Of a stretch of DNA of 64,000 nt, positions 19,822 through 64,000 are shown one piece after another. Origin of the DNA: Candidatus Poseidoniaceae archaeon (GTDB taxonomy: Archaea > Thermoplasmatota > Poseidoniia > Poseidoniales > Poseidoniaceae); contig CASIAP010000009.1 in NCBI GenBank assembly GCA_949372645.1, positions 65,107 to 129,106 of the forward strand. Direction: 5' to 3'. Every line of letters begins with the position of its first letter. Position 1 is the first letter of the stretch. The position numbers and the translations under genes are program-made. The notes under the pieces are model-generated. The model did not search any database. It was given only the letters and a program-made list of their open reading frames with translations, and had not been told where the DNA came from.

Positions 19822-22800
19822 TTACTTCCATTGATTGGTATCCCAATCGTTGCTTGGTGGGGGCACATACTGACTCAACTGAGAGAAATCTGGAGCTGCT
19901 GGTACATCAGCGTACATCGGAGGGGGAGCAAATAGCGGTGGTGCCTGCTTCGGACGTGCTTGTTGCTTTGGATTCGGGTGTTGACGGCGAGTGATGAAGA
20001 GGACAATGAAAAGCAAGGCTACGACACCTCCAAGCATCCAAACGAGGAAGTACGAGCCGAAATCCAATCCTTTTGAATTTTGATTGGTTTCCAAGGTCGC
20101 TTTTTCATCCGCTTCTTCGAGAACTGGCGGATGCCACACTGTATAGGTTACCAACCATTTTATCTCGATAGATCCAGTGTCATCCGAAATAACAACTTTG
20201 ATTTCATAGGGCTCCAATGTCCCATTAAAGGCACATAATTCCTGCGAAAAGGTGATGTTGGGCTGCTGACAATTGTGAGCCATTTCTCCAAAAGAAAGTC
20301 CTTGACCCAACAGTGTTTGATTTCTATACCAGAGGGTTGTGAGGTTAAGTCGTTGAATTGACAAAGGATCAAGTTCGAGTACCACGCCAAGTTCCAGAGA
20401 ATCATTTGTAGCATTGAGGGAAACATCTCCCATTAAAGGCCCAGGAGTAATCCAAATTGCTCGATCGATTCCTTCATCAATCGCTCCATCACAATTATCA
20501 TCTAAACCATTCCAATCTTCAAGTGCATTTGGTGAACGGGCAGAATCGTTGTCATCACAATCAAGGAACCAACGGAAACCGTCTTGATCGGCATCTGGAT
20601 CGATTACGAACGGGTTTGTGAACGTAGAAAGAACTTCAATTCCATCCCTTAATCCATCACCGTCAGTATCGTCATCGAACGGGTCTGTACCGATTTCAAG
20701 AAATTCAACTAAATCGAGTAATCCATCCGCATCCGCATCTGTTCCGTTAAATGTCTCATCAGCTTCCCCGTCACAATTGTTATCGATGCCATCTAAGAGT
20801 TCGAGAGCATCCGGGTAAATGCTTGAATTTGTATCGTTACAATCTTCAAACCAATAGAAACCATCCATGTCAGTGTCGTTATCTTTGACCAATGGATTGG
20901 TCAGAAGAATCAGTACTTCTCGTCCGTCGTCGAGGAAATCTCCATCTGTATCGGTTGCTGAAATATTAGTGCCGAAGATGTGGAATTCACCAAAGTCAGA
21001 GAGTCCATCGCCATCTGTATCGGTGGCATTGAACCCTTCATCCCATTGGCCATCGCAATTATCATCGATGCCGTTGAGCACCTCAAGTGCACCAGGGTAG
21101 ACCATTGCATTGGTGTCGTTACAATCTTGGAACCAGTAGAAAGCATCCCCGTCATCGTCTGGGTCAGGCACAAGTGGATTGGTGCCATACAGCAAGACTT
21201 CTTCTCCATCGAGTAACAAATCATCATCTGTATCATTGTCCAACGGGTCGGTTCCATTAACATTGATCTCGACTCCATCTGTTAAGCCATCACCATCAGT
21301 ATCTGCAACCAACGGATTGGTTCCATACACCAGCACTTCCGTACCGTCATTGATGGTATCGTCGTCTGTATCAATATCATTGGGGTCAGTACCATAGACA
21401 TCGGTTTCATTGGTATCAGAGAGATTATCACCATCAGAATCGAGATTTATTTGGGTGCCATAGATAATCAGTTCCCAATCATCGAACGAGCCAACATCAT
21501 TGTTTCCTTGGTCTTCGACGGTAAGTGTCCAGTCACCACGGCTGTCTTCATCCCAGTTGTGCACGGTTGAAAAGCGCCAGTTGCTGTAATCGGAATTCTC
21601 ATCATCGTGTTTTTCACTCAAAACACTCTCAGTTCCAGATGGACTTGTTAAGATAATTTCCAGATCACCGCGGAAGTCATGAGGAATATCTACGATGATG
21701 TCGACATTTTCGACCAAGATTGCATCGGGGACTGTAGTATTGCTTGAGATATAGTTCGGACTGTTGTCTGGAATATCTGTATCGACGGTGGTTGTACCTG
21801 AAGAGAAGGAGATTTCTTGTTCGACGGAAGTCCAACTTTCTGCCATTGAAACTGCGGCACCAGCGTCGATTACGCCATACCCGTACTTGTGACTCACCTC
21901 ATGGCCAGCACCATTGACTCCCCAAGAAGAATCGGAAGCATCGTTTTTGCGGGAGGTGAGGACGATGATGTGTTGAACATCCCGCCATGTCAGGTTTGCG
22001 TTTGCCTCGAGCATCAGAGCAATGACGCCAGAAACAAGAGGTGTTGCTGAAGAAGTCCCCCCAAAGGAATCCGTGTAATCGTTATTCGTGTAGCCACCAG
22101 AACCTTCGATGTCGGTTGTAGTGATGCTTTCACCATCACCATTTGAGGGCGAGGCAACGAGGATATTTGCTCCAGGTTCAGCGTAGTAGGACTGTCTGCC
22201 TTTGTGATCGACGGCAGTTACTGCAATGGTGTAACGAAGATTTGCATATCCGTCATAATTAGAATTATCATCATCATCTAATCCATTCCCAGCGGCCCAT
22301 GTGATGATGTTTCCAAGTCCATTCCTTCCAACTAATGCATCGTTTTGCATGGCCGCTAACATCAGTGGACCGGGCCCTTCAAGAGTTTCTCCATTATCGC
22401 TCGGGCCCCATGAATTGGAATAGATATCAATATCTTGACGTTCGTGCCCTAATGCCCCTCCTTCGCGGACATCAGTTGTACTGCATGAAATCAATTGCAG
22501 TCCAGCAAGGCCTGCCTTCGGAGCTGAACCACTGACACCAATGTTGTTGTCGCCAACGCCTGCCGCGACTCCGGCAGAGGCTGTACCATGAGCGTTGTTG
22601 GAGCTCGGGGAAGGATCGCCATCATCGCCACAGAAATCGTAGTCAAGCGTCGATTCGTAATAATTATCTAAATCAGGGTGCGTCCAGTCGAGTCCATCAT
22701 CCACGATTCCAATGACAATGCCCGTTCCTCTGTATGAATTCCAGGCGCCCGTGATGTTGACGTCTTCTCCACTTGTCCCTCCGGTTTGGCCAGTGTTCTG

Positions 22801-23253
22801 AAGGTGCCACTGGTCGGAGAATTTGGGGTCATTTGGAACCCAACGAGGCTGCATGTCGTTTTCGACTAAAGGATAAGCAACCTCGATTATACCGTTTTCT
22901 ATTTGTTGTGAAAACAGCCTTGAGGCTTCAAACGGATTGACATCAACAATCCATGCACCGGCCAGATCTTTTGCCGGCTCGCCAGCATACTCTGATGCAA
23001 TAACGACCCATTGGGTAGCGGATTCCAACTGTGTTTCTGAATAGATTGACAGGTCGCTTTTCTGGGCGAGGGCTGCTTGAATTATTGGAGAATACGAATC
23101 GACGATCGTCCCATCCCCCGCTTCTTCTATTCCAGTTTCGAGAGGTTCAGAGGACGGCGTGGTTAATGCGCTTGCCATTGGCGAGAGCAATGAGCATACC
23201 AGGACAAACAGTATGGCACAAGTGCGCATACCTTCTTGTCGTCCTTGGTCCAT
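19822..23253 (-). CDS. secreted, C-terminally membrane-anchored subtilisin/kexin-like serine protease (S8) with P-domain, TSP3-like Ca-binding repeats and MopE-like Cys repeats
   Basis: Catalytic triad contexts IGIVDDGLD, HGTASAGVAAG and GGTSSATPLVSG. P-domain block GDLEIILTSPSGTES...GDWTLTVEDQG...DDWELIIYG. DxDxDGxxD repeats, then 3x (F/Y)WFxDCNDTN...NGIDDNCDG. C-terminal TM and Pro-rich tail. Signal peptide from the alternative ATG 23229. Confidence 0.9.
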   Translation of the reverse strand: MDQGRQEGMRTCAILFVLVCSLLSPMASALTTPSSEPLETGIEEAGDGTIVDSYSPIIQAALAQKSDLSIYSETQLESATQWVVIASEYAGEPAKDLAGAWIVDVNPFEASRLFSQQIENGIIEVAYPLVENDMQPRWVPNDPKFSDQWHLQNTGQTGGTSGEDVNITGAWNSYRGTGIVIGIVDDGLDWTHPDLDNYYESTLDYDFCGDDGDPSPSSNNAHGTASAGVAAGVGDNNIGVSGSAPKAGLAGLQLISCSTTDVREGGALGHERQDIDIYSNSWGPSDNGETLEGPGPLMLAAMQNDALVGRNGLGNIITWAAGNGLDDDDNSNYDGYANLRYTIAVTAVDHKGRQSYYAEPGANILVASPSNGDGESITTTDIEGSGGYTNNDYTDSFGGTSSATPLVSGVIALMLEANANLTWRDVQHIIVLTSRKNDASDSSWGVNGAGHEVSHKYGYGVIDAGAAVSMAESWTSVEQEISFSSGTTTVDTDIPDNSPNYISSNTTVPDAILVENVDIIVDIPHDFRGDLEIILTSPSGTESVLSEKHDDENSDYSNWRFSTVHNWDEDSRGDWTLTVEDQGNNDVGSFDDWELIIYGTQINLDSDGDNLSDTNETDVYGTDPNDIDTDDDTINDGTEVLVYGTNPLVADTDGDGLTDGVEINVNGTDPLDNDTDDDLLLDGEEVLLYGTNPLVPDPDDDGDAFYWFQDCNDTNAMVYPGALEVLNGIDDNCDGQWDEGFNATDTDGDGLSDFGEFHIFGTNISATDTDGDFLDDGREVLILLTNPLVKDNDTDMDGFYWFEDCNDTNSSIYPDALELLDGIDNNCDGEADETFNGTDADADGLLDLVEFLEIGTDPFDDDTDGDGLRDGIEVLSTFTNPFVIDPDADQDGFRWFLDCDDNDSARSPNALEDWNGLDDNCDGAIDEGIDRAIWITPGPLMGDVSLNATNDSLELGVVLELDPLSIQRLNLTTLWYRNQTLLGQGLSFGEMAHNCQQPNITFSQELCAFNGTLEPYEIKVVISDDTGSIEIKWLVTYTVWHPPVLEEADEKATLETNQNSKGLDFGSYFLVWMLGGVVALLFIVLFITRRQHPNPKQQARPKQAPPLFAPPPMYADVPAAPDFSQLSQYVPPPSNDWDTNQWK
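20440..21470 (-). repeat. in-frame tandem coding repeats inside the protease gene (~285-nt unit x ~2.5, plus shorter TSP3-like units)
   Basis: Protein-level repeats DGDAFYWFQDCNDTNAMVYPGALEVLNGIDDNCDG, DMDGFYWFEDCNDTNSSIYPDALELLDGIDNNCDG and DQDGFRWFLDCDDNDSARSPNALEDWNGLDDNCDG, each followed by DTDGDGL-type loops. Confidence 0.8.
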
Positions 23254-33043: not shown

Positions 33044-33131
33044 AAAACCCATTTTTTGGTAATTTTAGGACCCTCAATTCAAGGGTCACATTCAAACCGG
33101 AAAAGCCAGCCCGCTGGTTTGGGTGGGGTCC

Positions 33132-35126
33132 ATGCAAAGCGGAGTAAGCGGATGGTATGCAAGACTAGACAGGTGTCTTGGAGATCGTACCGAACAAATC
33201 CATATTTGGCTTGCCGCATGGGAGCAATCCCTTCTCGTTCATCAGCCAATTGCAGCTCTTCTCCCTGAAGATTGGCCAACCCTGCCAGCAAATCTCTTAA
33301 CCGACCCTGGCCATGTCCTTGACCATCTCTTAGCACGCCATGACGCTGAGGCTGACGGACGCTCCCCCCGCGGTGCTCATCCAACCCCTCCACGTTTGGC
33401 AGATGCAGTCATTGCCTCTGAGTTATTGGAAAGCTTGACGCGCCCCAAAGCCCCGACTCAAACCTCTTCAATGCATTTGAACAACCTTCCACCAGGTTTC
33501 CGACAACACCTCGAAAAACTCAATCTTCCTCAACTTACCCAAGAAACTGAAGTCGATGACGAATCAGAATTTGAACGGGTAAAACTTGGCCTCCGAACGC
33601 TCAGTGGAATACCTCTCCCAGTTGCAGACACTTCTTGTGGCGGCGGAATCTTCCACGCACGCTTGATTCGCCGGCATGCTGAAAGTCACAGCGACAGCCC
33701 CATCGAGCGAAAAGTAGCTGATACCAAAGCTCTTCTTTCTTCATTCCAATTACTCGACAATGACGATTTAGTCGTCTCTTCGACACGGCAACGTCTGTTG
33801 CTCGAATGTATTCGTTTTGATTTGGTAAGTTTGAAATCAAACAAACCGGGATGCCTGCCCCGTAATGAAGCAGAACAATTACTTGAACAAGCAGTTCGAC
33901 AAGGTGACACATTGCAAGGCGGTTGGCCTTGGAGTGAAGCACCCCGCCTTATTGTTACCAATCCACCTTGGCTGAGAATTAAAGACAGGTTTCGCGGAAT
34001 GGAAGAGGGTAGCAAACTTCGCCGAGAACTTGGTGAGCAATTGCGAGCGCTCTCTGATGACGGAGTTCCACGCTTCTCAACTATGCGAGGGAACGTTAAC
34101 CTCTACCGCCTTTTCATTGAACGGGGATTACAAATCTTAGAACAAGGCGGACGCCTACGCTTAATTGCCCCAGATAGCATTCTCCGAGAACAATCTTCTC
34201 ATCCCCTTCGCCAACTGCTTGTCGAAGGGCATGGGTGGAGTGAGGTTTGGGCTATTGAAGAAGCAAACCACTTGTTCCCTGGAATGACTCAGGGGGTTGC
34301 CGTTCTTGGCATTACAGCAAAACAAGAAACCGAGAAACTGGTGATTCACGGGCCAATCAGCCGTGCTGATTTACGCCGTGATCAAAAAGGTCTTTCAAAC
34401 CGAGTCCCTTCCTTCGAGATGGAAAAAGAGCGTTGGGTTGCCTGGGCTAAAGACACCTGGGCTATTCCTCGCCTACCTCGTGATCGTGTCGAGCGTAAAC
34501 AAACATTGCAAATTCTTGACCACCTCGCTAGCCTTCCACGAATGGGGGAGCAACAGCATGCCATCGCTACCAACGGACACACTATCCGTGTTCGTGTGGG
34601 GGAGATCGATCAAACAGCACACTCCAAATCCATTGAAACATGGGTCAAGGGACGTGGCTCACGTCCTTTTATCCGCGGCGTACACTTTTCTGAAGATGAA
34701 GATGGCCAAGTCTTTGTCCGCCACCCAGCTTTCCGAACAGATATTCCTTCAAGGGCTAATGAACGGCAACTTGCTATGTGGTGTGGAAGTGCTGAACCGA
34801 AATTCGGCCCTCGACTTGCTTGTCAAGCCATCGTCAATGCACACCAAGAACGCCGACTTCGCTGGGCAGTTATTCCGTCAGGTTGCGTTCTCGGGAACAG
34901 TGTGAATCATATCGAACTCCATTCTGATATCCAAGAACGTCTTATTCGAAGCCATGGAACGCTTGAGAAAGCCCTCCACTGGATGTGCGAATTGTTGAAT
35001 GCGAAAGATCTCGATGAATGGGCTCGTGCTTGGTCTGCAAATAATAACGTCAATAATTACGAATTAGAAATGCTTCCAGTGGAAACCTTGTCCGAAATAC
35101 CGGAATTGATGCTTTCAGTTCAGTAA
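33132..35126 (+). CDS. N6-adenine DNA methyltransferase, Eco57I/PglX-like architecture (MTase plus TaqI-C-like specificity region); no nuclease domain seen
   Basis: GAHPTPPRLADAVI block, motif I VADTSCGGGIF, motif IV VTNPPW, later LYRLFIERGL...GGRLRLIAPDSIL. The C-terminal end ...NNVNNYELEMLPV is typical of this class. Confidence 0.8.
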   Translation: MQSGVSGWYARLDRCLGDRTEQIHIWLAAWEQSLLVHQPIAALLPEDWPTLPANLLTDPGHVLDHLLARHDAEADGRSPRGAHPTPPRLADAVIASELLESLTRPKAPTQTSSMHLNNLPPGFRQHLEKLNLPQLTQETEVDDESEFERVKLGLRTLSGIPLPVADTSCGGGIFHARLIRRHAESHSDSPIERKVADTKALLSSFQLLDNDDLVVSSTRQRLLLECIRFDLVSLKSNKPGCLPRNEAEQLLEQAVRQGDTLQGGWPWSEAPRLIVTNPPWLRIKDRFRGMEEGSKLRRELGEQLRALSDDGVPRFSTMRGNVNLYRLFIERGLQILEQGGRLRLIAPDSILREQSSHPLRQLLVEGHGWSEVWAIEEANHLFPGMTQGVAVLGITAKQETEKLVIHGPISRADLRRDQKGLSNRVPSFEMEKERWVAWAKDTWAIPRLPRDRVERKQTLQILDHLASLPRMGEQQHAIATNGHTIRVRVGEIDQTAHSKSIETWVKGRGSRPFIRGVHFSEDEDGQVFVRHPAFRTDIPSRANERQLAMWCGSAEPKFGPRLACQAIVNAHQERRLRWAVIPSGCVLGNSVNHIELHSDIQERLIRSHGTLEKALHWMCELLNAKDLDEWARAWSANNNVNNYELEMLPVETLSEIPELMLSVQ

Positions 35127-58490: not shown

Positions 58491-60497
58491 ATGAAATCCA
58501 ATCTACTGTTCATAAATCGCGATGCAGCGGACAGAATTATCACGTATGCTTTCGTTGGTTTGGTGACCATATGCCTGCTTTCTGCAACAGCATATCTTGC
58601 CCTTGGTGGAGAAAAAAATGCAGATAAAGCCGATACAGCTACTGCGTGGGTCGACCCTGTTGTTGAAATTGAAGACGAACAGCACAGCCACACCGACCTC
58701 TTAGCCCACCGGTTGAAAACCGACAACATGGAACTCATCGACTATCATAATCTCAACTGCGACGGCAACGTTGCCCCGCCAGCCGAACTTGACAACGTCG
58801 CAGGACGGCCTTGTCTCCCAGAATACAAGAACATCGGACCGACACCTGGTGATTCTTCTGAGATCTCAATTGAAGGCAATTTCATGGAAGATTGCGTCAA
58901 GAACCCTGACGGGTCCGGTGGATGCTACGCCTATGTTTCTTCGTACAACCAATTCGAAATTTTGGACATCTCGGAACCAAACAACATTGTCCTCCTCTCG
59001 ACCTACTACGCTGAGATTGGCCGTATGATTGACATCAAGGTCACACCAGATAACAACTGGGTGCTGGTCAATCACGAATTGACAAACAGTGATCTTGACC
59101 CAATCCCAAATGACGATGACGCCAACAGCGGTGCAAACCGACTCGATGTCATCTCTGTGGTCAACAAGAATGAACCAATCAAGGTCGCTGAATGGAACAA
59201 TCCCCCCGCGGGATTCCACAATCAAGACATGCACGTGGACTGCGAGTGGGAACCAACAAACCCTCTATGGTCCATTGAAGAGTGCCACCTGTTCCTCTAC
59301 GGTGCAGACCCCTATCCAGAAATGGTCGAAGGCGATTCTGGAACCTTTTACAAAGGCACACAAATCTTCTACGTCCCTCTCGGTTTTGAATCATGGATTG
59401 ATCCAACTGCAACAGACGAAGAGCAAAACAACAGCCGCCAAATCCTTCGCTGGGGAGGATACTCTCCAGAACCAGAAACAACCTGCGGTGGCTCGATTTT
59501 CAACCACGATAACGTGTTCCATATCCATCCAATCACCGGACAGAAACTCCTCTACATTTCCTACTGGGATGCTGGACTAAGAATCGTCGATGTCTCGAAC
59601 CCACCAGAAGTTCCTGACCCTGAAGGCATCAGCTGGCCACAGGACAACGAAGTTGGACGATGGCTTGGATGCCCGAGCGCTGATGATGGCTGGTACGGCC
59701 CTGACGGTGGTGGCCATGCGAACATGTCTTCCGAAGAATGGGGCGGCAGCAGCGGCGCCCTCAACGGTAACGGCTGGATCCACTACGCGGTTCCTTACGA
59801 CCACTTGTTGTGCAACGGAGCCAAGGACACCGACCCAACGGAAACATGGGATGCTGAATGCGGCACAGGACCAAACGACGCTGAATTCGGTATCAACTGG
59901 CGCCACTTGACCATGATCGCACCGGAGTACGGCACCAACACCAACCACACCGGTTACATCTGGACCATTGACACCACCGATCCTGCCAAGCCGTTCTTGA
60001 TGAGCAAGTGGAAGCTTCCCGGTTCAAGCATCTTGCCTGACGGTAGCGAACACCCTCACCACTACATCCCAGGTGGCTATATTTACAGCCCCCACAACGG
60101 AGACACTGGAACCCACGGTAACGTCTACTGGACGCACTACCACGCAGGAAACTGGGTCACCGACCACAGCGATATTTGGCAAGACCTCGAGTGGGTTGAT
60201 GGCACTCCAGCCCCTGAAATCGGCTACCCTGCTATTGCTAAGATGTCTGAAACCAAGACGTTGGGATACTACCTTCCTTCAGGCCCAACTTGGATTGACG
60301 ACCCTACAACGACCTTAGGCTACGATATGGCTGATTGTTGGGCTTCGTGTATGATTCCATTCGACTGGGGCCTTCAATACGACCCTCGAGGCTATCTGTT
60401 CATTTCAGAGATGGTCACTGGCGTCTATGTGGTGCAAATGGAGGAGGACAAGAATCCGAACTTTGTCTATCCACCTCTTTACCCAAGTGACGATTGA
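58491..60497 (+). CDS. LVIVD-repeat beta-propeller-like surface protein
   Basis: N-terminal TM anchor. FEILDISEPNNIVLLSTY and YISYWDAGLRIVDVSNP match the LVIVD repeat consensus. The protein is rich in W, G and D. Confidence 0.6.
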   Translation: MKSNLLFINRDAADRIITYAFVGLVTICLLSATAYLALGGEKNADKADTATAWVDPVVEIEDEQHSHTDLLAHRLKTDNMELIDYHNLNCDGNVAPPAELDNVAGRPCLPEYKNIGPTPGDSSEISIEGNFMEDCVKNPDGSGGCYAYVSSYNQFEILDISEPNNIVLLSTYYAEIGRMIDIKVTPDNNWVLVNHELTNSDLDPIPNDDDANSGANRLDVISVVNKNEPIKVAEWNNPPAGFHNQDMHVDCEWEPTNPLWSIEECHLFLYGADPYPEMVEGDSGTFYKGTQIFYVPLGFESWIDPTATDEEQNNSRQILRWGGYSPEPETTCGGSIFNHDNVFHIHPITGQKLLYISYWDAGLRIVDVSNPPEVPDPEGISWPQDNEVGRWLGCPSADDGWYGPDGGGHANMSSEEWGGSSGALNGNGWIHYAVPYDHLLCNGAKDTDPTETWDAECGTGPNDAEFGINWRHLTMIAPEYGTNTNHTGYIWTIDTTDPAKPFLMSKWKLPGSSILPDGSEHPHHYIPGGYIYSPHNGDTGTHGNVYWTHYHAGNWVTDHSDIWQDLEWVDGTPAPEIGYPAIAKMSETKTLGYYLPSGPTWIDDPTTTLGYDMADCWASCMIPFDWGLQYDPRGYLFISEMVTGVYVVQMEEDKNPNFVYPPLYPSDD

Positions 60498-60503
60498 TTG
60501 AAC

Positions 60504-60520
60504 ACAAGGTCCTCCCTTGT
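60504..60520 (+). terminator. perfect hairpin ACAAGG-TCCTC-CCTTGT 7 nt after the stop codon
   Basis: 6-bp stem and 5-nt loop read directly from the sequence. A termination role is assumed only from its position. Confidence 0.35.
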
Positions 60521-60755
60521 ACATGGCGTCGTTGCCGTGGGTAGCGTTCAATATGGCCCATAGAGAGCCCATGTATGCACTAAATCTGTTCACAAAGATG
60601 TTATGGTGAAACCCTCGTGAACATATGCTATCCATTTATCCACTTCACTAGATCACATTCATTTTGAGCGTACTCTTGTAATCAAGTGATCTCTATTTTT
60701 GGGAAATGGTTGGGCCAAAATTTAAGTAATCTATTCTTGAGATTGTCATGAGTAT

Positions 60756-61070
60756 ATGTCTATATCTTCTGTGAAGGAAACTTTCGCACAAGCGAAGAAG
60801 ATGGGTTTAGAACTAAGTTCTGATGGGAAATCGTGGGTTCCAGTTGAGGAACTTGTCGTTAAATTACCTCCAGAGAAACATAAACAAGTTCGAATTAGCG
60901 TGAACAAGAATAAAGGAGATTCAACATGGTTACAATGGATATTTCAAATTGGAATCGTCGCCTTACTCCTTGTAATCATTGGCACCTTTATCGCAGCAAG
61001 GTTGATTTACGAGATGGTTATCTTCTTTATGCTATTTATTTCAAGTCTAGGTGGCTCAGCATTCGGTTAA
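60756..61070 (+). CDS. possible small membrane protein within an AT-rich island
   Basis: 104-aa ORF. Lys-rich N-half, two hydrophobic segments (IFQIGIVALLLVIIGTFIAA, MVIFFMLFISSLGG). No homology support. Confidence 0.35.
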   Translation: MSISSVKETFAQAKKMGLELSSDGKSWVPVEELVVKLPPEKHKQVRISVNKNKGDSTWLQWIFQIGIVALLLVIIGTFIAARLIYEMVIFFMLFISSLGGSAFG

Positions 61071-61164
61071 AAAACAAGCCAAAAAGACTGTTTAAAAAAA
61101 GTCAACAATTCCGCCAAAAAAATTATTCAAAGGGATAAAAAAGAAATTCAAGAAATAATTGACG

Positions 61165-61242
61165 TACACAAGGGGACCCGTTGTATACGTATACAGCCAC
61201 AAGGGTACCGTTGAAGTCGCCCGTGTCTACAACGGGCCCCTT
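61165..61242. promoter_or_regulatory. array of three related quasi-palindromic 15-19-bp sites at 30-31-bp spacing
   Basis: CACAAGGGGACCCGTTGT (61167-61184), CACAAGGGTACCGTTG (61198-61213) and ACAACGGGCCCCTT (61229-61242, an inverted copy). GTATACGTATAC lies between sites 1 and 2. Confidence 0.45.
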
Positions 61243-61479
61243 ATGTTCGCTGACTTATGCAGAAACACATATATCAATCATAATCTAGGATAATACATGG
61301 GTTTGTCCATAAACCCAAGAAAAGAGGAACTCCCTATCTGAGAACTCTTAATGGGTCATATACAACGCTAGCATGAGCAAACCAGAGATTAGATATTGAT
61401 GAATCGGTCACTTCACTAGAGTTATCATAATACGCTTAAACCTCTTAGATTGTTTGTGGCCCGAGTCCTCTATAACGGA

Positions 61480-62280
61480 ATGACCTTGCCCGGTTCAGGA
61501 AGTTCTCCAAAGAATTGGTGGTGGACTTCAGGTATTTGTTTTGGCCTTTTTCTGTTTTTTGTTATGATTGATGGGACGCTTGAGTCCTCAGATAGTGGCT
61601 ATGAAATACCAGGCTCTTGGGTGAATGATGGATTCGAGGACTGTAATGATGGTAGTGATGAAACATACGGAGGTTTGTATTACAGCGATACTTTCACCTG
61701 CGATCAAACATCAACGTCCGGCAATGCTGCATTTGCCTTCCTTGGAACGGGGAGTTGCTGTTTTTCTGTGATTGCTGGCATAGTTGCTCTTTCGATTGGC
61801 AATTCTAAACAAACTGTTATTGTTCAACAAATGCCTCAAATGTATGCTCCTCAGCCGATTATTCAACAGGTTATTCACCAACCAGTCCAACAAGCACCAC
61901 GAGGGCAAATGCCTATCCAACAGCGCCCTCCTCAACAAGCACCACGAGGGCAAATGCCTATCCAACCGCGCCCTCCAAAACCCACTGTAAACCCTCAAGG
62001 ATTTGCACAACAAGCAAAGAATCTCGAAATGGCAAGAGATTTCCAGGGAGCTGCAGACATGTTCCAGAAAGCAGGATTATTTGCAGAGGCTGGAAGAGTG
62101 CGTCAAAAATTCCTTGAGAAAGAGGACAAACCAGTTGTTCAGATCGGACAAGTCGGCAATTCAGTGGTCCAAGACTCAGTGATTATGGGCAGTTCCCCTC
62201 AACCGAATATCTGTAATGGATGTAATTCTTCAATCCAACCGGACTGGAAGTTTTGCCCAAGCTGTAATGCCCCAATTTGA
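61480..62280 (+). CDS. membrane protein with LDLa-like acidic motif, Pro/Gln-rich tandem repeat and C-terminal zinc ribbon
   Basis: TM1 WWWTSGICFGLFLFFVMI. WVNDGFEDCNDGSDE. TM2. 2x QQAPRGQMPIQ(Q/P)RPP. C-terminal CNGCNSSIQPDWKFCPSCN. ATG 61480 is preferred to the TTG at 61450. Confidence 0.55.
   Translation: MTLPGSGSSPKNWWWTSGICFGLFLFFVMIDGTLESSDSGYEIPGSWVNDGFEDCNDGSDETYGGLYYSDTFTCDQTSTSGNAAFAFLGTGSCCFSVIAGIVALSIGNSKQTVIVQQMPQMYAPQPIIQQVIHQPVQQAPRGQMPIQQRPPQQAPRGQMPIQPRPPKPTVNPQGFAQQAKNLEMARDFQGAADMFQKAGLFAEAGRVRQKFLEKEDKPVVQIGQVGNSVVQDSVIMGSSPQPNICNGCNSSIQPDWKFCPSCNAPI
61888..61977 (+). repeat. 2 x 45-bp near-identical in-frame tandem repeat
   Basis: CAACAAGCACCACGAGGGCAAATGCCTATCCAAC(A/C)GCGCCCTCC(T/A) occurs at 61888 and 61933. 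Confidence 0.85.
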
Positions 62281-62428
62281 ACAACTGGCTTATACTCTCT
62301 TCAGTTCAAAGTGAAAATTGGAGCCATAGCGAGGTTGTTGCTGCATACCATTGGAAAGAGAACCGACTGAAGGTGTTTGAGTTTTTGTCGGCTCAATCTT
62401 TAACAACCAAAAATATCTATCGATTCTT

Positions 62429-64000
62429 ATGCAGGTCTTCTACTCGAACAAGATTCTACTCGGTGCTGCTACCTTTTTACTACTCATCAATGTAACATTC
62501 TTACCAATGGTTTTCACGAGTGCGGTCCCTGATGCAGTGGAAGAAAATTTTGCTACCTTTCCTCTCGATTCTGCCTGTGGTGATGACGGAAACTGCGACA
62601 GCGTCGAAGATTCGTGGGCCACAACGACTGTAACTCGTGATTATTATGCCTGGGATTTAGCGAATTTAGAAGACGTGTTAGCAGAGGGTGCTGAGCCAAG
62701 ATATGTGGAAAAAGGCCCTTATACCTATGAAATAACATCGGAAAAAACCCTCTTAGAACATGATGAACAGAACGGTGAACTCACCTATAATGTTGTCAAA
62801 AGTTACCGCTGCTCCACCGAGAGTACCAACTCTTGTGATGAGGATTTGACTCAATTGAATATTCAGTTTCGACCACAATTAATTGGCGCGACTGGAACGG
62901 CATTCAGAGGCATCATGGATTTGACGAAAGTTGGTTTTTCAAGTGGAATGATGAATCAAGATTTGAATACAACTCAAGCCGGAATTGCTACTGCAGCGTT
63001 CATTGAATCGATGACCAGTACCGTTGGAGGGGCAGGTTTTGGCTCGTATTCATACGCAGCATTAACTGCAGCCGAAGCCGTTGGGCAAGTGAGCGTATTG
63101 TTGCCAAATACCCTTGATGGAAACATATTGCCAATAGCGAACTTCTTGGGAGGTCTCGATAAAGCACTGAATTCTTCATTCCATCCATCAGATCCTCTGT
63201 TTGATATTTCATTACTGAATGATTTGGGCCCAGTAGCCTTTGTTTCAATGGGAGAACCAGATGCATTATTATCAGAACTTGAAGCAAACCCAACCAATTC
63301 AATCTCGGTCAAACGAGCGAGAGCTTACGGCTACTTGGCTGCTGAAATGGTTGATACGGATGGTGATGGTTTGGACGACTCAGAAAGCATTGATTATGCT
63401 CAAACGCTGATTCGAGATTGGGCATTATATGTTGGAATTGGTTTTGAATTTCAATCGAATGGTGGAGGCTCGCCATACACCGATAGTGATGATATTGCTG
63501 ACCGTTTGAATAATTTATTTGGGATTGATTTCTCCGATGTTGACTGTCTAAATTTGATGCTGAATGGTGATGGAACCAGTAGCCCACTTGGTTTGTTAGC
63601 TACAAATTCAGGAGGGACGGGATTTGGATTAAGCAAATTTTTAGAATTATCATCATCTGAAGCAATGTCGGCTTTTGGTTTAAGTCAAGACCAATACGAT
63701 GTGATAACCCCTTGGGCAAATGGCTGGTCGAACTCCACCTCTTCACTTCAAATGGCTTTACTTGGAGGTAATGGTACACTCAATGCCAAGCAATTTGTCA
63801 ACACAAGTTTTGGTGCTCAAGATCCAATCGGTGGTGGTTTTCTGCAGTACAGTTTGAATCAGGGTGGTGATTGGGGTTCGCAGAATTCGATTCCTGACAT
63901 TGCACTCACCCCTGAACAATCGGCTGAAATATTGTATGGGCCAATGGGTCTGACCACAACGGATGGAGCACTGTTCTTCCTTTACGGTGAATTGTCCGGT
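62429..64000 (+). CDS. CD36/LIMP-2/SR-B family-like membrane protein (5' partial; runs off the window)
   Basis: My own translation from ATG 62429 shows no stop through 64000. It has an N-terminal TM, then YYAWDLANLEDVLAEGAEPRYVEKGPYTYEI...QNGELTYNVVKSY...LTQLNIQ. This aligns to the CD36-family N-terminal signature. The ORF is not in the supplied track because it is open-ended. Confidence 0.6.
   Translation, partial: MQVFYSNKILLGAATFLLLINVTFLPMVFTSAVPDAVEENFATFPLDSACGDDGNCDSVEDSWATTTVTRDYYAWDLANLEDVLAEGAEPRYVEKGPYTYEITSEKTLLEHDEQNGELTYNVVKSYRCSTESTNSCDEDLTQLNIQFRPQLIGATGTAFRGIMDLTKVGFSSGMMNQDLNTTQAGIATAAFIESMTSTVGGAGFGSYSYAALTAAEAVGQVSVLLPNTLDGNILPIANFLGGLDKALNSSFHPSDPLFDISLLNDLGPVAFVSMGEPDALLSELEANPTNSISVKRARAYGYLAAEMVDTDGDGLDDSESIDYAQTLIRDWALYVGIGFEFQSNGGGSPYTDSDDIADRLNNLFGIDFSDVDCLNLMLNGDGTSSPLGLLATNSGGTGFGLSKFLELSSSEAMSAFGLSQDQYDVITPWANGWSNSTSSLQMALLGGNGTLNAKQFVNTSFGAQDPIGGGFLQYSLNQGGDWGSQNSIPDIALTPEQSAEILYGPMGLTTTDGALFFLYGELSG

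Follow-up and report, generated by a model that had tools for sequence, protein, structure and literature searches.

The open reading frame (ORF) that runs off the end of the DNA studied here raises two questions: (i) is its product a true member of the CD36 or scavenger receptor class B (SR-B) family and (ii) what would such a protein do in a marine archaeon. The DNA is a 64,000-nucleotide stretch from Candidatus Poseidoniaceae archaeon (assembly GCA_949372645.1, contig CASIAP010000009.1, positions 65,107–129,106), which we refer to as the window. The frame opens with an ATG at position 62429 and continues on the forward strand through 524 codons without a stop, until it is truncated by the window end at position 64000. 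This agrees with a preliminary description of the locus, and the peptides quoted there (ILLGAATFLLLINVTFLPMVF, TVTRDYYAWDLANLEDVLAEGAEPRYVEKGPYTYEITSEK, DEDLTQLNIQ and DTDGDGLDDSE) are all found in the translation. A 901-residue protein from an independent metagenome (P0001) is 99% identical across 100% of the fragment and serves as our full-length proxy. Judged by P0001, the complete protein has ~901 residues and the window carries the 5′ 58% of the gene (codons 1–524). For the first question, we are highly confident that the ORF encodes a true SR-B homologue. The family is usually discussed in another context: a family-wide study of SR-B/CD36 proteins published in 2023 treats Eukarya only and does not mention prokaryotes (PMC10715195; Genome Biol Evol, evad218), and it links SR-Bs to the ancestral eukaryotic phagosome, with one inferred in the last eukaryotic common ancestor.

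The Pfam search proposed in the preliminary description gives a significant match. PF01130 aligns to the window fragment with 48.7 bits (E = 5.1e-13; curated cutoff 26.5 bits) over positions 41–134 of the 463-position profile. The matched segment is the N-terminal block of the CD36 domain (residues 61–157; 62609–62899, + strand), delimited by Pfam, PDB and hhalign comparisons. It carries the motif RDYYAW.L.N...GPYTYE and is built of long β-strands (residues 65–77, 92–112, 117–128 and 139–143) in an AlphaFold model. PF01130 is also detected in nine of nine full-length relatives (47–71 bits), eight of which show two matching stretches, and its precomputed annotation is present on nearly all of 240 homologues among the matches listed. 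In a fragment scan of P0001, the second stretch falls at residues ~566–685 and corresponds to profile positions 142–260. Because the stretches matching positions 41–134 and 142–260 lie apart in the protein, the CD36 homology is split by ~400 residues (~158–553), which we refer to as the insert.

The remainder of the ectodomain becomes visible when the insert is deleted. We compared an insert-deleted family profile with a reference pair consisting of CD36 (5lgd) and LIMP-2 (4q4f), where the human CD36 sequence is identical to chain 5lgd_A at 472/472 positions. The hhalign local alignment extends over 336 columns (probability 96.8%, E = 2.9e-10), and the global alignment extends over 365 columns and CD36 residues 34–459 (probability 98.4%, E = 4.1e-14). 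Hallmark motifs are paired in order along this alignment (archaeal/CD36): RDYYAWNLTN/RQFWIFDVQN, GPYTYE/GPYTYR, NWLLGWHDPV/ELLWGYRDPF, VKGIPV/LKGIPV, FYLDTR/TYLDIE and finally PVFEI..S.I.D.DAE/VPILWLNETGTIGDEKA. The preliminary description had recognized a likeness over a block of ~70 residues. That block is real, but its extent was understated, since homology continues well past it and, with the insert removed, covers the entire ectodomain.

Structure prediction leads to the same family. A first AlphaFold model, based on a 35-sequence alignment drawn from Marine Group IIa (MGIIa) only, was poor (predicted local distance difference test score, pLDDT, 65.6), and Foldseek already pointed to LIMP-2 with a template-modelling score (TM-score) of 0.21. 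It was replaced by a second model built on a 54-sequence alignment (A2) to which divergent MGIIb members had been added (pLDDT 85.5, predicted TM-score 0.74). In a Foldseek comparison of this model with the PDB, the top 13 matches are all LIMP-2 or CD36 chains (E = 3e-7 to 6e-4, probability 1.0), aligned over 297–331 columns with TM-scores of 0.39–0.44 per target and root-mean-square deviations of 6–11 Å. The first match outside the CD36 family appears only at E = 0.087. Since ~320 aligned columns could not span a 400-residue insert, the fold match of the model would lie mainly in the C-terminal block of ~285 residues, which is the region where the sequence evidence is weakest.

Several results weigh against homology over the full length. 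With the insert kept in place, the sequence methods (phmmer, hmmsearch and hhalign) detect the N-terminal block alone, and sequence searches of the PDB, whether with a single sequence (phmmer) or with the family profile (hmmsearch), return LIMP-2 and CD36 only and do so through this block. C-terminal fragments give weak or no Pfam matches to profile positions 260–463; those of divergent members match positions 142–222 weakly and positions 260–463 not at all. The TM-scores to LIMP-2 and CD36 are also moderate. One could therefore suppose that the CD36 likeness is accidental or arose by convergence, and that the protein combines a short motif with a generic half-barrel for lipid binding, as in LolA, LppX and LmcA, an idea that gains from the 55- to 100-residue block being all that single-sequence searches detect and from LmcA/LppX fold matches, weak ones, ranking below the CD36 family. 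This explanation is very improbable and already largely refuted by the precedence of 13/13 CD36-family PDB chains, with a gap of more than 100-fold in E-value to the next match, by the 365-column alignment of the insert-deleted profile with its ordered motifs (E = 4e-14), and by the identical topology with two transmembrane (TM) helices and Pfam scores above the gathering threshold in every member tested. The mycobacterial proteins LmcA and LppX (7n3v, 7shw and 2byo) have a partly open β-sheet lipid-binding fold and are the next fold matches after CD36, but these matches are insignificant (E = 0.09–0.6, TM-score ~0.3, 155–224 columns). They differ further in being single-anchor lipoproteins of ~250 residues without sequence similarity to the archaeal protein, and the resemblance is one of fold class only, not of membership. 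Based on the Pfam scores above cutoff, the insert-deleted alignment and a predicted fold that is that of LIMP-2 and CD36, we conclude, as the preliminary description had proposed, that the protein is a CD36/SR-B homologue; its ectodomain adopts the CD36 fold and, apart from the insert, shows homology to CD36 and LIMP-2 over the entire length.

The topology is also that of the family. In P0001, hydrophobic segments at residues ~9–29 (TM1) and ~843–863 (TM2) coincide with helices 2–31 and 842–875 of the model, and hydrophobic segments are present at both termini in 54/54 aligned members. The window fragment shows TM1 only (62453–62515, + strand), which was assigned by Kyte–Doolittle analysis and the model, follows an 8-residue cytoplasmic stub and is read in the translation as ILLGAATFLLLINVTFLPMVF, with a 19-residue Kyte–Doolittle maximum of 2.12. 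A membrane-proximal linker (residues 30–60; 62516–62608, + strand) connects it to the CD36 domain and contains the pair Cys50 and Cys56, both invariant in alignment A1 (an MGIIa subset) but not in A2. The protein is thus a membrane hairpin consisting of a short stub, TM1, an extracellular domain of ~810 residues, TM2 and a short acidic C-terminal tail. A CD36 ectodomain between two TM helices is the operational definition of an SR-B (PMC10715195), and it describes the archaeal protein.

Comparison with the vertebrate proteins CD36, LIMP-2 (SCARB2) and SR-BI (5lgd, 4f7b, 4q4b, 4tw0 and 5uph) brings out both shared and divergent features. The two-TM hairpin is common to both groups, and the asymmetric antiparallel β-barrel ectodomain of the vertebrate proteins is the sole significant fold match of the archaeal model. 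Identity over the structural alignment is just 13–15%, however, and the archaeal ectodomain is about twice as long, with ~400 residues at the site of the short α4 and α5 apex helices. The three metazoan disulfides are missing: in the hhalign alignment no archaeal cysteine is aligned with CD36 C243, C272, C311, C313, C322 or C333, and A2 contains no invariant cysteine column. MGIIa members have cysteine pairs of their own (C50/C56, C128/C136, C644/C651 and C712/C726) that are not conserved in MGIIb. These disulfides are reported to be specific to Metazoa and missing from every non-metazoan SR-B (PMC10715195), and they are therefore not a family-defining feature. The archaeal host also differs from vertebrate hosts in having no endomembrane or lipoprotein context. 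The expectation that the protein would not be a simple copy of an animal gene is borne out by the ~400-residue insert and the lack of the metazoan disulfide pattern.

Where is the insert located, and is it conserved? It is seated between the strand LTQLNIQF, which corresponds to FTVLNLAV of CD36, and a helix (residues 554–581) that is aligned with CD36 α5 by hhalign and in the model; the place of α4 is taken by the ~400-residue helical domain. On the predicted structure this position is the membrane-distal apex, the ligand-binding region of eukaryotic SR-Bs, which has also been enlarged independently in eukaryotic lineages. The window contains the first ~367 residues of the insert (62900–64000, + strand), recognized as a Pfam-blank region and from the model. 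An insert of ~400 residues (359–505) is found in 54/54 aligned members. It is modelled confidently (pLDDT 81–95 as 10-residue block means, residues ~151–520) as a mostly helical domain that opens with a 71-residue helix (residues 147–217). No Pfam or other known family matches it. The most conserved segment of the entire protein, judged by invariant columns in A1 and A2, is located here (IGATGTA...MMNQDLNTTQAG, residues 152–185). Overall, the insert is about as conserved as the barrel core, with identities among distant members of 29% and 32–36%, respectively. The preliminary description spoke of long unassigned inserts; the lack of any known match stands, but there is a single conserved apex domain rather than several inserts. 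The acidic loop DTDGDGLDDSE, to which it also drew attention, is present in the insert (residues 309–319; 63353–63385, + strand, from the translation) and resembles a Ca-binding loop. It is variable and occurs in only some of the MGIIa members; P0095 and every MGIIb-type member either lack it or have another sequence in its place. For want of conservation it was rejected as a family feature.

Precedents for an enlarged apex are found among the non-metazoan SR-Bs, which depart from the canonical apex three-helix bundle formed by α4, α5 and α7 (PMC10715195). Dictyostelium LmpA-C and the proteins from Bathycoccus, Micromonas and Cafeteria (SR-B_2; evad218) have the same split TM-CD36-CD36-TM Pfam architecture as the archaeal proteins, an expansion at the same α4/α5 region and a similar total length (755–1202 residues), and they likewise lack the metazoan disulfides. 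The similarity of position does not extend to sequence. A hidden Markov model of the insert scored below 0 bits against the apex expansions of all eight eukaryotic SR-Bs compared (from Bathycoccus, Micromonas, Coccomyxa, Nannochloropsis and oomycetes). Homology of the insert to these expansions was therefore rejected, and the archaeal expansion is independent.

The family is widespread in Poseidoniales. Two queries retrieved 281 and 218 homologues, and every named source belongs to Poseidoniales/Thalassarchaeaceae; both the Poseidoniaceae (MGIIa) and the Thalassarchaeaceae (MGIIb) are represented. An exhaustive search of 1.84 billion cluster representatives gave 271 matches, and the best 150 of the 271 comprise full-length proteins (843–969 residues) and shorter sequences that are probably fragments, every one of them aligning with a portion of the family profile. 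Among species genomes of the GTDB we found 230 encoding loci, and 79 of the best 80 carry labels of Poseidoniales or broader archaeal labels. The exception is a 13-kb contig (CALDQY010000126.1) encoding a 41%-identical member, which is assigned to a metagenome-assembled genome (MAG) with the label 'uncultured Rhodobiaceae bacterium'. Mis-binning of a Poseidoniales contig is a much likelier explanation than a bacterial member of the family. Some MAGs encode two (L014 and L057 in PSPR01) or three (L022, L036 and L071 in JAACDL01) members at 42–71% identity to the query, which indicates that the family has diversified into paralogous groups within Poseidoniales. A viral link was considered and rejected, as no copies were found in IMG/VR or BFVD.

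This distribution bears on how the gene came to be in the window. The preliminary description had inferred horizontal acquisition from base composition, and the compositional observations behind it are correct: an AT-rich island (60498–61449, GC 0.388) lies upstream, and the ORF has a slightly lower GC content than the window (0.436 versus 0.467; z = −1.6, within the lowest 3% of equal-sized windows). The tetranucleotide distance of the ORF is ordinary, however (z = 0.07), and the family is order-wide with paralogues. Taken together, these features argue against recent acquisition, which we reject as an explanation of the composition; any transfer was probably ancient. Nor does a donor lineage stand out among the eukaryotic SR-Bs sampled, a small set of 8 of the 279 published sequences, which score 11–32 bits against the archaeal core profile. 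Human LIMP-2 and CD36 and the Coccomyxa protein reach ~30 bits, and the proteins of picoalgae, Nannochloropsis and oomycetes 15–19 bits. The core likeness of protist SR-Bs (15–31 bits) is thus not above that of human CD36 and LIMP-2 (30–32 bits), and a donor among marine picoalgae, stramenopiles or oomycetes was rejected on the same 8 of 279 sequences.

Eukaryotic contamination, a chimeric join or a very recent gain would be hinted at by the low GC of the ORF and of the island, by two indels of ~830 bp that set the window apart from its closest contig and by neighbours that vary among orthologues of 88–99% identity. Against this, a contig from another sample (L005) repeats the order found in the window, with the end of a 668-residue gene, a zinc-ribbon gene and the CD36-like gene in succession at 97–99% identity. 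Because L005 reproduces the upstream junction, the join is not chimeric, which settles a concern raised in the preliminary description. The normal tetranucleotide signature, the hundreds of Poseidoniales assemblies that carry the family among core archaeal genes, the lack of a prominent relative among the eukaryotic SR-Bs sampled and the lack of viral copies in IMG/VR and BFVD all point the same way. Taken together, these three explanations are the least probable of the alternatives that we considered; contamination and chimerism are already refuted, and no donor sequence of high identity was found that would speak for a recent transfer. The archaeal setting of the gene, as first described, is evident from Topo VI B in the window, which also encodes aconitase, COX1 and a subtilase, and from the neighbours of the relatives, which include RNA polymerase A′/A″/B, L7Ae, TyrRS, MCM, GatB and a tRNA methyltransferase. 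We conclude that Poseidoniales have long carried the gene, which is present in both families, duplicated in some MAGs and embedded in housekeeping synteny within subclades.

The second question, that of function, is addressed mainly by analogy. In SR-Bs, ligand recognition is governed by the apex, and the tunnel carries long-chain fatty acids as well as cholesteryl esters (PMC10715195). By the same arrangement, the archaeal protein would capture a hydrophobic ligand at its apex, and the ligand would pass via an internal β-barrel tunnel to the cell membrane, reaching it at the outer face. Specificity for the ligand would come from the archaea-specific apex domain. In these photoheterotrophs, particles and dissolved organic matter may supply the cargo in the form of long-chain fatty acids or other lipids. 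In the portions of two comparative genomic studies considered here (PMC6461757 and PMC6336850), fatty-acid degradation is encoded in all Poseidoniales genera and no fatty-acid importer is named. Since all genera encode this pathway, fatty acids or other lipids appear the likeliest cargo. We lean towards the combined picture of an archaeal SR-B member with apex capture and tunnel-mediated lipid uptake, whereas the assignment of the role itself, uptake of lipid or another hydrophobic ligand, is offered more tentatively.

Genomic context and family precedent both tell against uptake to some degree. The family has no partner that is conserved throughout, such as an acyl-CoA synthetase or β-oxidation genes, which is why family analogy is the best support for the proposed mechanism. 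The commonest neighbours are housekeeping genes, with the genes for an AIR-synthase-related protein, a tRNA methyltransferase and pyruvate kinase at the head of the list, and no neighbour of any kind is shared by over 17 of 83 loci. Members of the CD36 family serve as receptors in adhesion or recognition too, so transport is not the sole precedent, and genes of the resistance-nodulation-division (RND) type, MMPL or Patched, adjoin the CD36-like gene in two species-level contexts only.

Those RND genes raise the possibility of traffic in the opposite direction, in which the protein would handle endogenous hydrophobic compounds (isoprenoid lipids, carotenoid or retinal precursors, or quinones) outward or for envelope maintenance, possibly receiving them from RND-type exporters. 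Two arrangements are seen beside the two closest orthologue groups: an MMPL gene divergent from the CD36-like gene (L001 7398–9755, − strand; the same in L001–L003 and L009) and a Patched/SSD gene two genes downstream (L006 13345–15933, + strand; L006–L008). SR-BI allows lipid to flow in both directions, and LIMP-2 works side by side with the RND-like protein NPC1, a pair that the adjacency recalls. It has no counterpart in the other ~75 loci or in the window, and lipid-biosynthesis genes are not consistently linked. We consider outward handling improbable. A family-wide RND operon was rejected, because tblastn and unsupervised clustering of neighbours reveal the two species-level contexts only.

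The main rival to lipid uptake, itself unlikely in our estimate, is that a protein with a true CD36 fold serves purely in adhesion or recognition, its apex domain binding particles, phytoplankton surfaces, polymers or partner surface proteins, and that it does not transport lipid. The apex is the site of ligand recognition in eukaryotic SR-Bs, which bind proteins and cells as well (PMC10715195), and conservation in the archaeal protein is highest there. According to PMC6461757, Poseidoniales probably live in association with particles and have many surface proteins of the adhesion type, such as thrombospondin-repeat proteins and flotillin, and genes for surface proteins (TSP_3, LVIVD and FG-GAP) are nearby in several loci. 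No specific binding partner is conserved in the vicinity, however, and the β-barrel core is conserved as well as the insert or better (32–36% versus 29% among distant members), which suggests that the barrel is itself functional and not a mere stalk.

Two thrombospondin type-3 (TSP3) repeat genes can be mentioned separately. A 1178-residue protein of this kind adjoins the CD36-like gene in L001 (12814–16350, − strand), and the subtilase of the window (19822–23253, − strand) has bacterial TSP3 repeats. Animal CD36 binds thrombospondin type-1 repeats, not type-3, and the proximity of such genes to CD36-like genes is probably a coincidence.

A small flexible region seems to lie upstream of the CD36-like gene. 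The intergenic segment (62281–62428, + strand; GC 0.392) contains the A/T-rich AAAAATAT ~16–23 nucleotides 5′ of the ATG, which from a reading of the sequence may be an archaeal TATA-like element (putative, + strand). The window and L005, whose orthologue is 99% identical, differ by two presence/absence events of ~830 bp. An AT-rich segment of the window (60539–61370), which holds a 104-residue membrane ORF (60756–61070), is missing from L005, and an inserted segment of ~885 bp with a minus-strand gene for a 274-residue protein is found just upstream of the CD36-like gene in L005 (995–1879, relative to window positions 62282–62334). The 274-residue protein has no Pfam match and no homologue in the other 86 loci.

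Among the neighbouring genes of the window, the ORF directly upstream (61450–62280, + strand; 276 residues) is kept in L005. Its product has a hydrophobic segment, two tandem QQAPRGQMPIQ repeats, a C-terminal zinc ribbon and a sub-threshold motif resembling LDL-receptor class A (residues 53–71; 20 bits versus a cutoff of 24.1). A 668-residue secreted LVIVD-repeat protein is encoded at 58491–60497 (+ strand) by a gene of unusually high GC content (0.514; 0.572 at third codon positions) that directly precedes the AT-rich island (GC 0.388); nowhere else in this part of the window does the composition change so sharply. Farther away, a 667-residue ORF (33123–35126, + strand) contains an Eco57I-type restriction-modification methylase domain.

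How much of this is new? NCBI already names a few members 'CD36 family protein' and the Pfam annotation is public, so that the bare domain assignment is not new. A full-text search, to which most subscription journals are closed, found no paper on CD36 in archaea, Poseidoniales, MGII or Thermoplasmatota, which exposes a gap between the databases and the literature. What is undescribed so far is an abundant and ancient archaeal SR-B clade, the likeness of its whole ectodomain to CD36, and its conserved, archaea-specific apex domain. The boldest form of the proposal, which we regard as possible but rather doubtful, is that this ancient, order-wide and duplicated clade, approximately equidistant from the sampled eukaryotic SR-Bs and equipped with its own apex domain, is a so far unrecognized route for the uptake of fatty acids or other lipids by the most abundant archaea of the surface ocean.

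The archaeal clade widens the known phyletic range of the CD36 fold, and its insert adds an independent case of apex expansion as a route by which ligand specificity evolves. For Marine Group II archaea, the family provides a concrete candidate for the capture of lipids and fatty acids. If the proposal is true, the CD36 tunnel fold would not be restricted to eukaryotes, and it would either have been gained from a eukaryote very early or be older than has been assumed.

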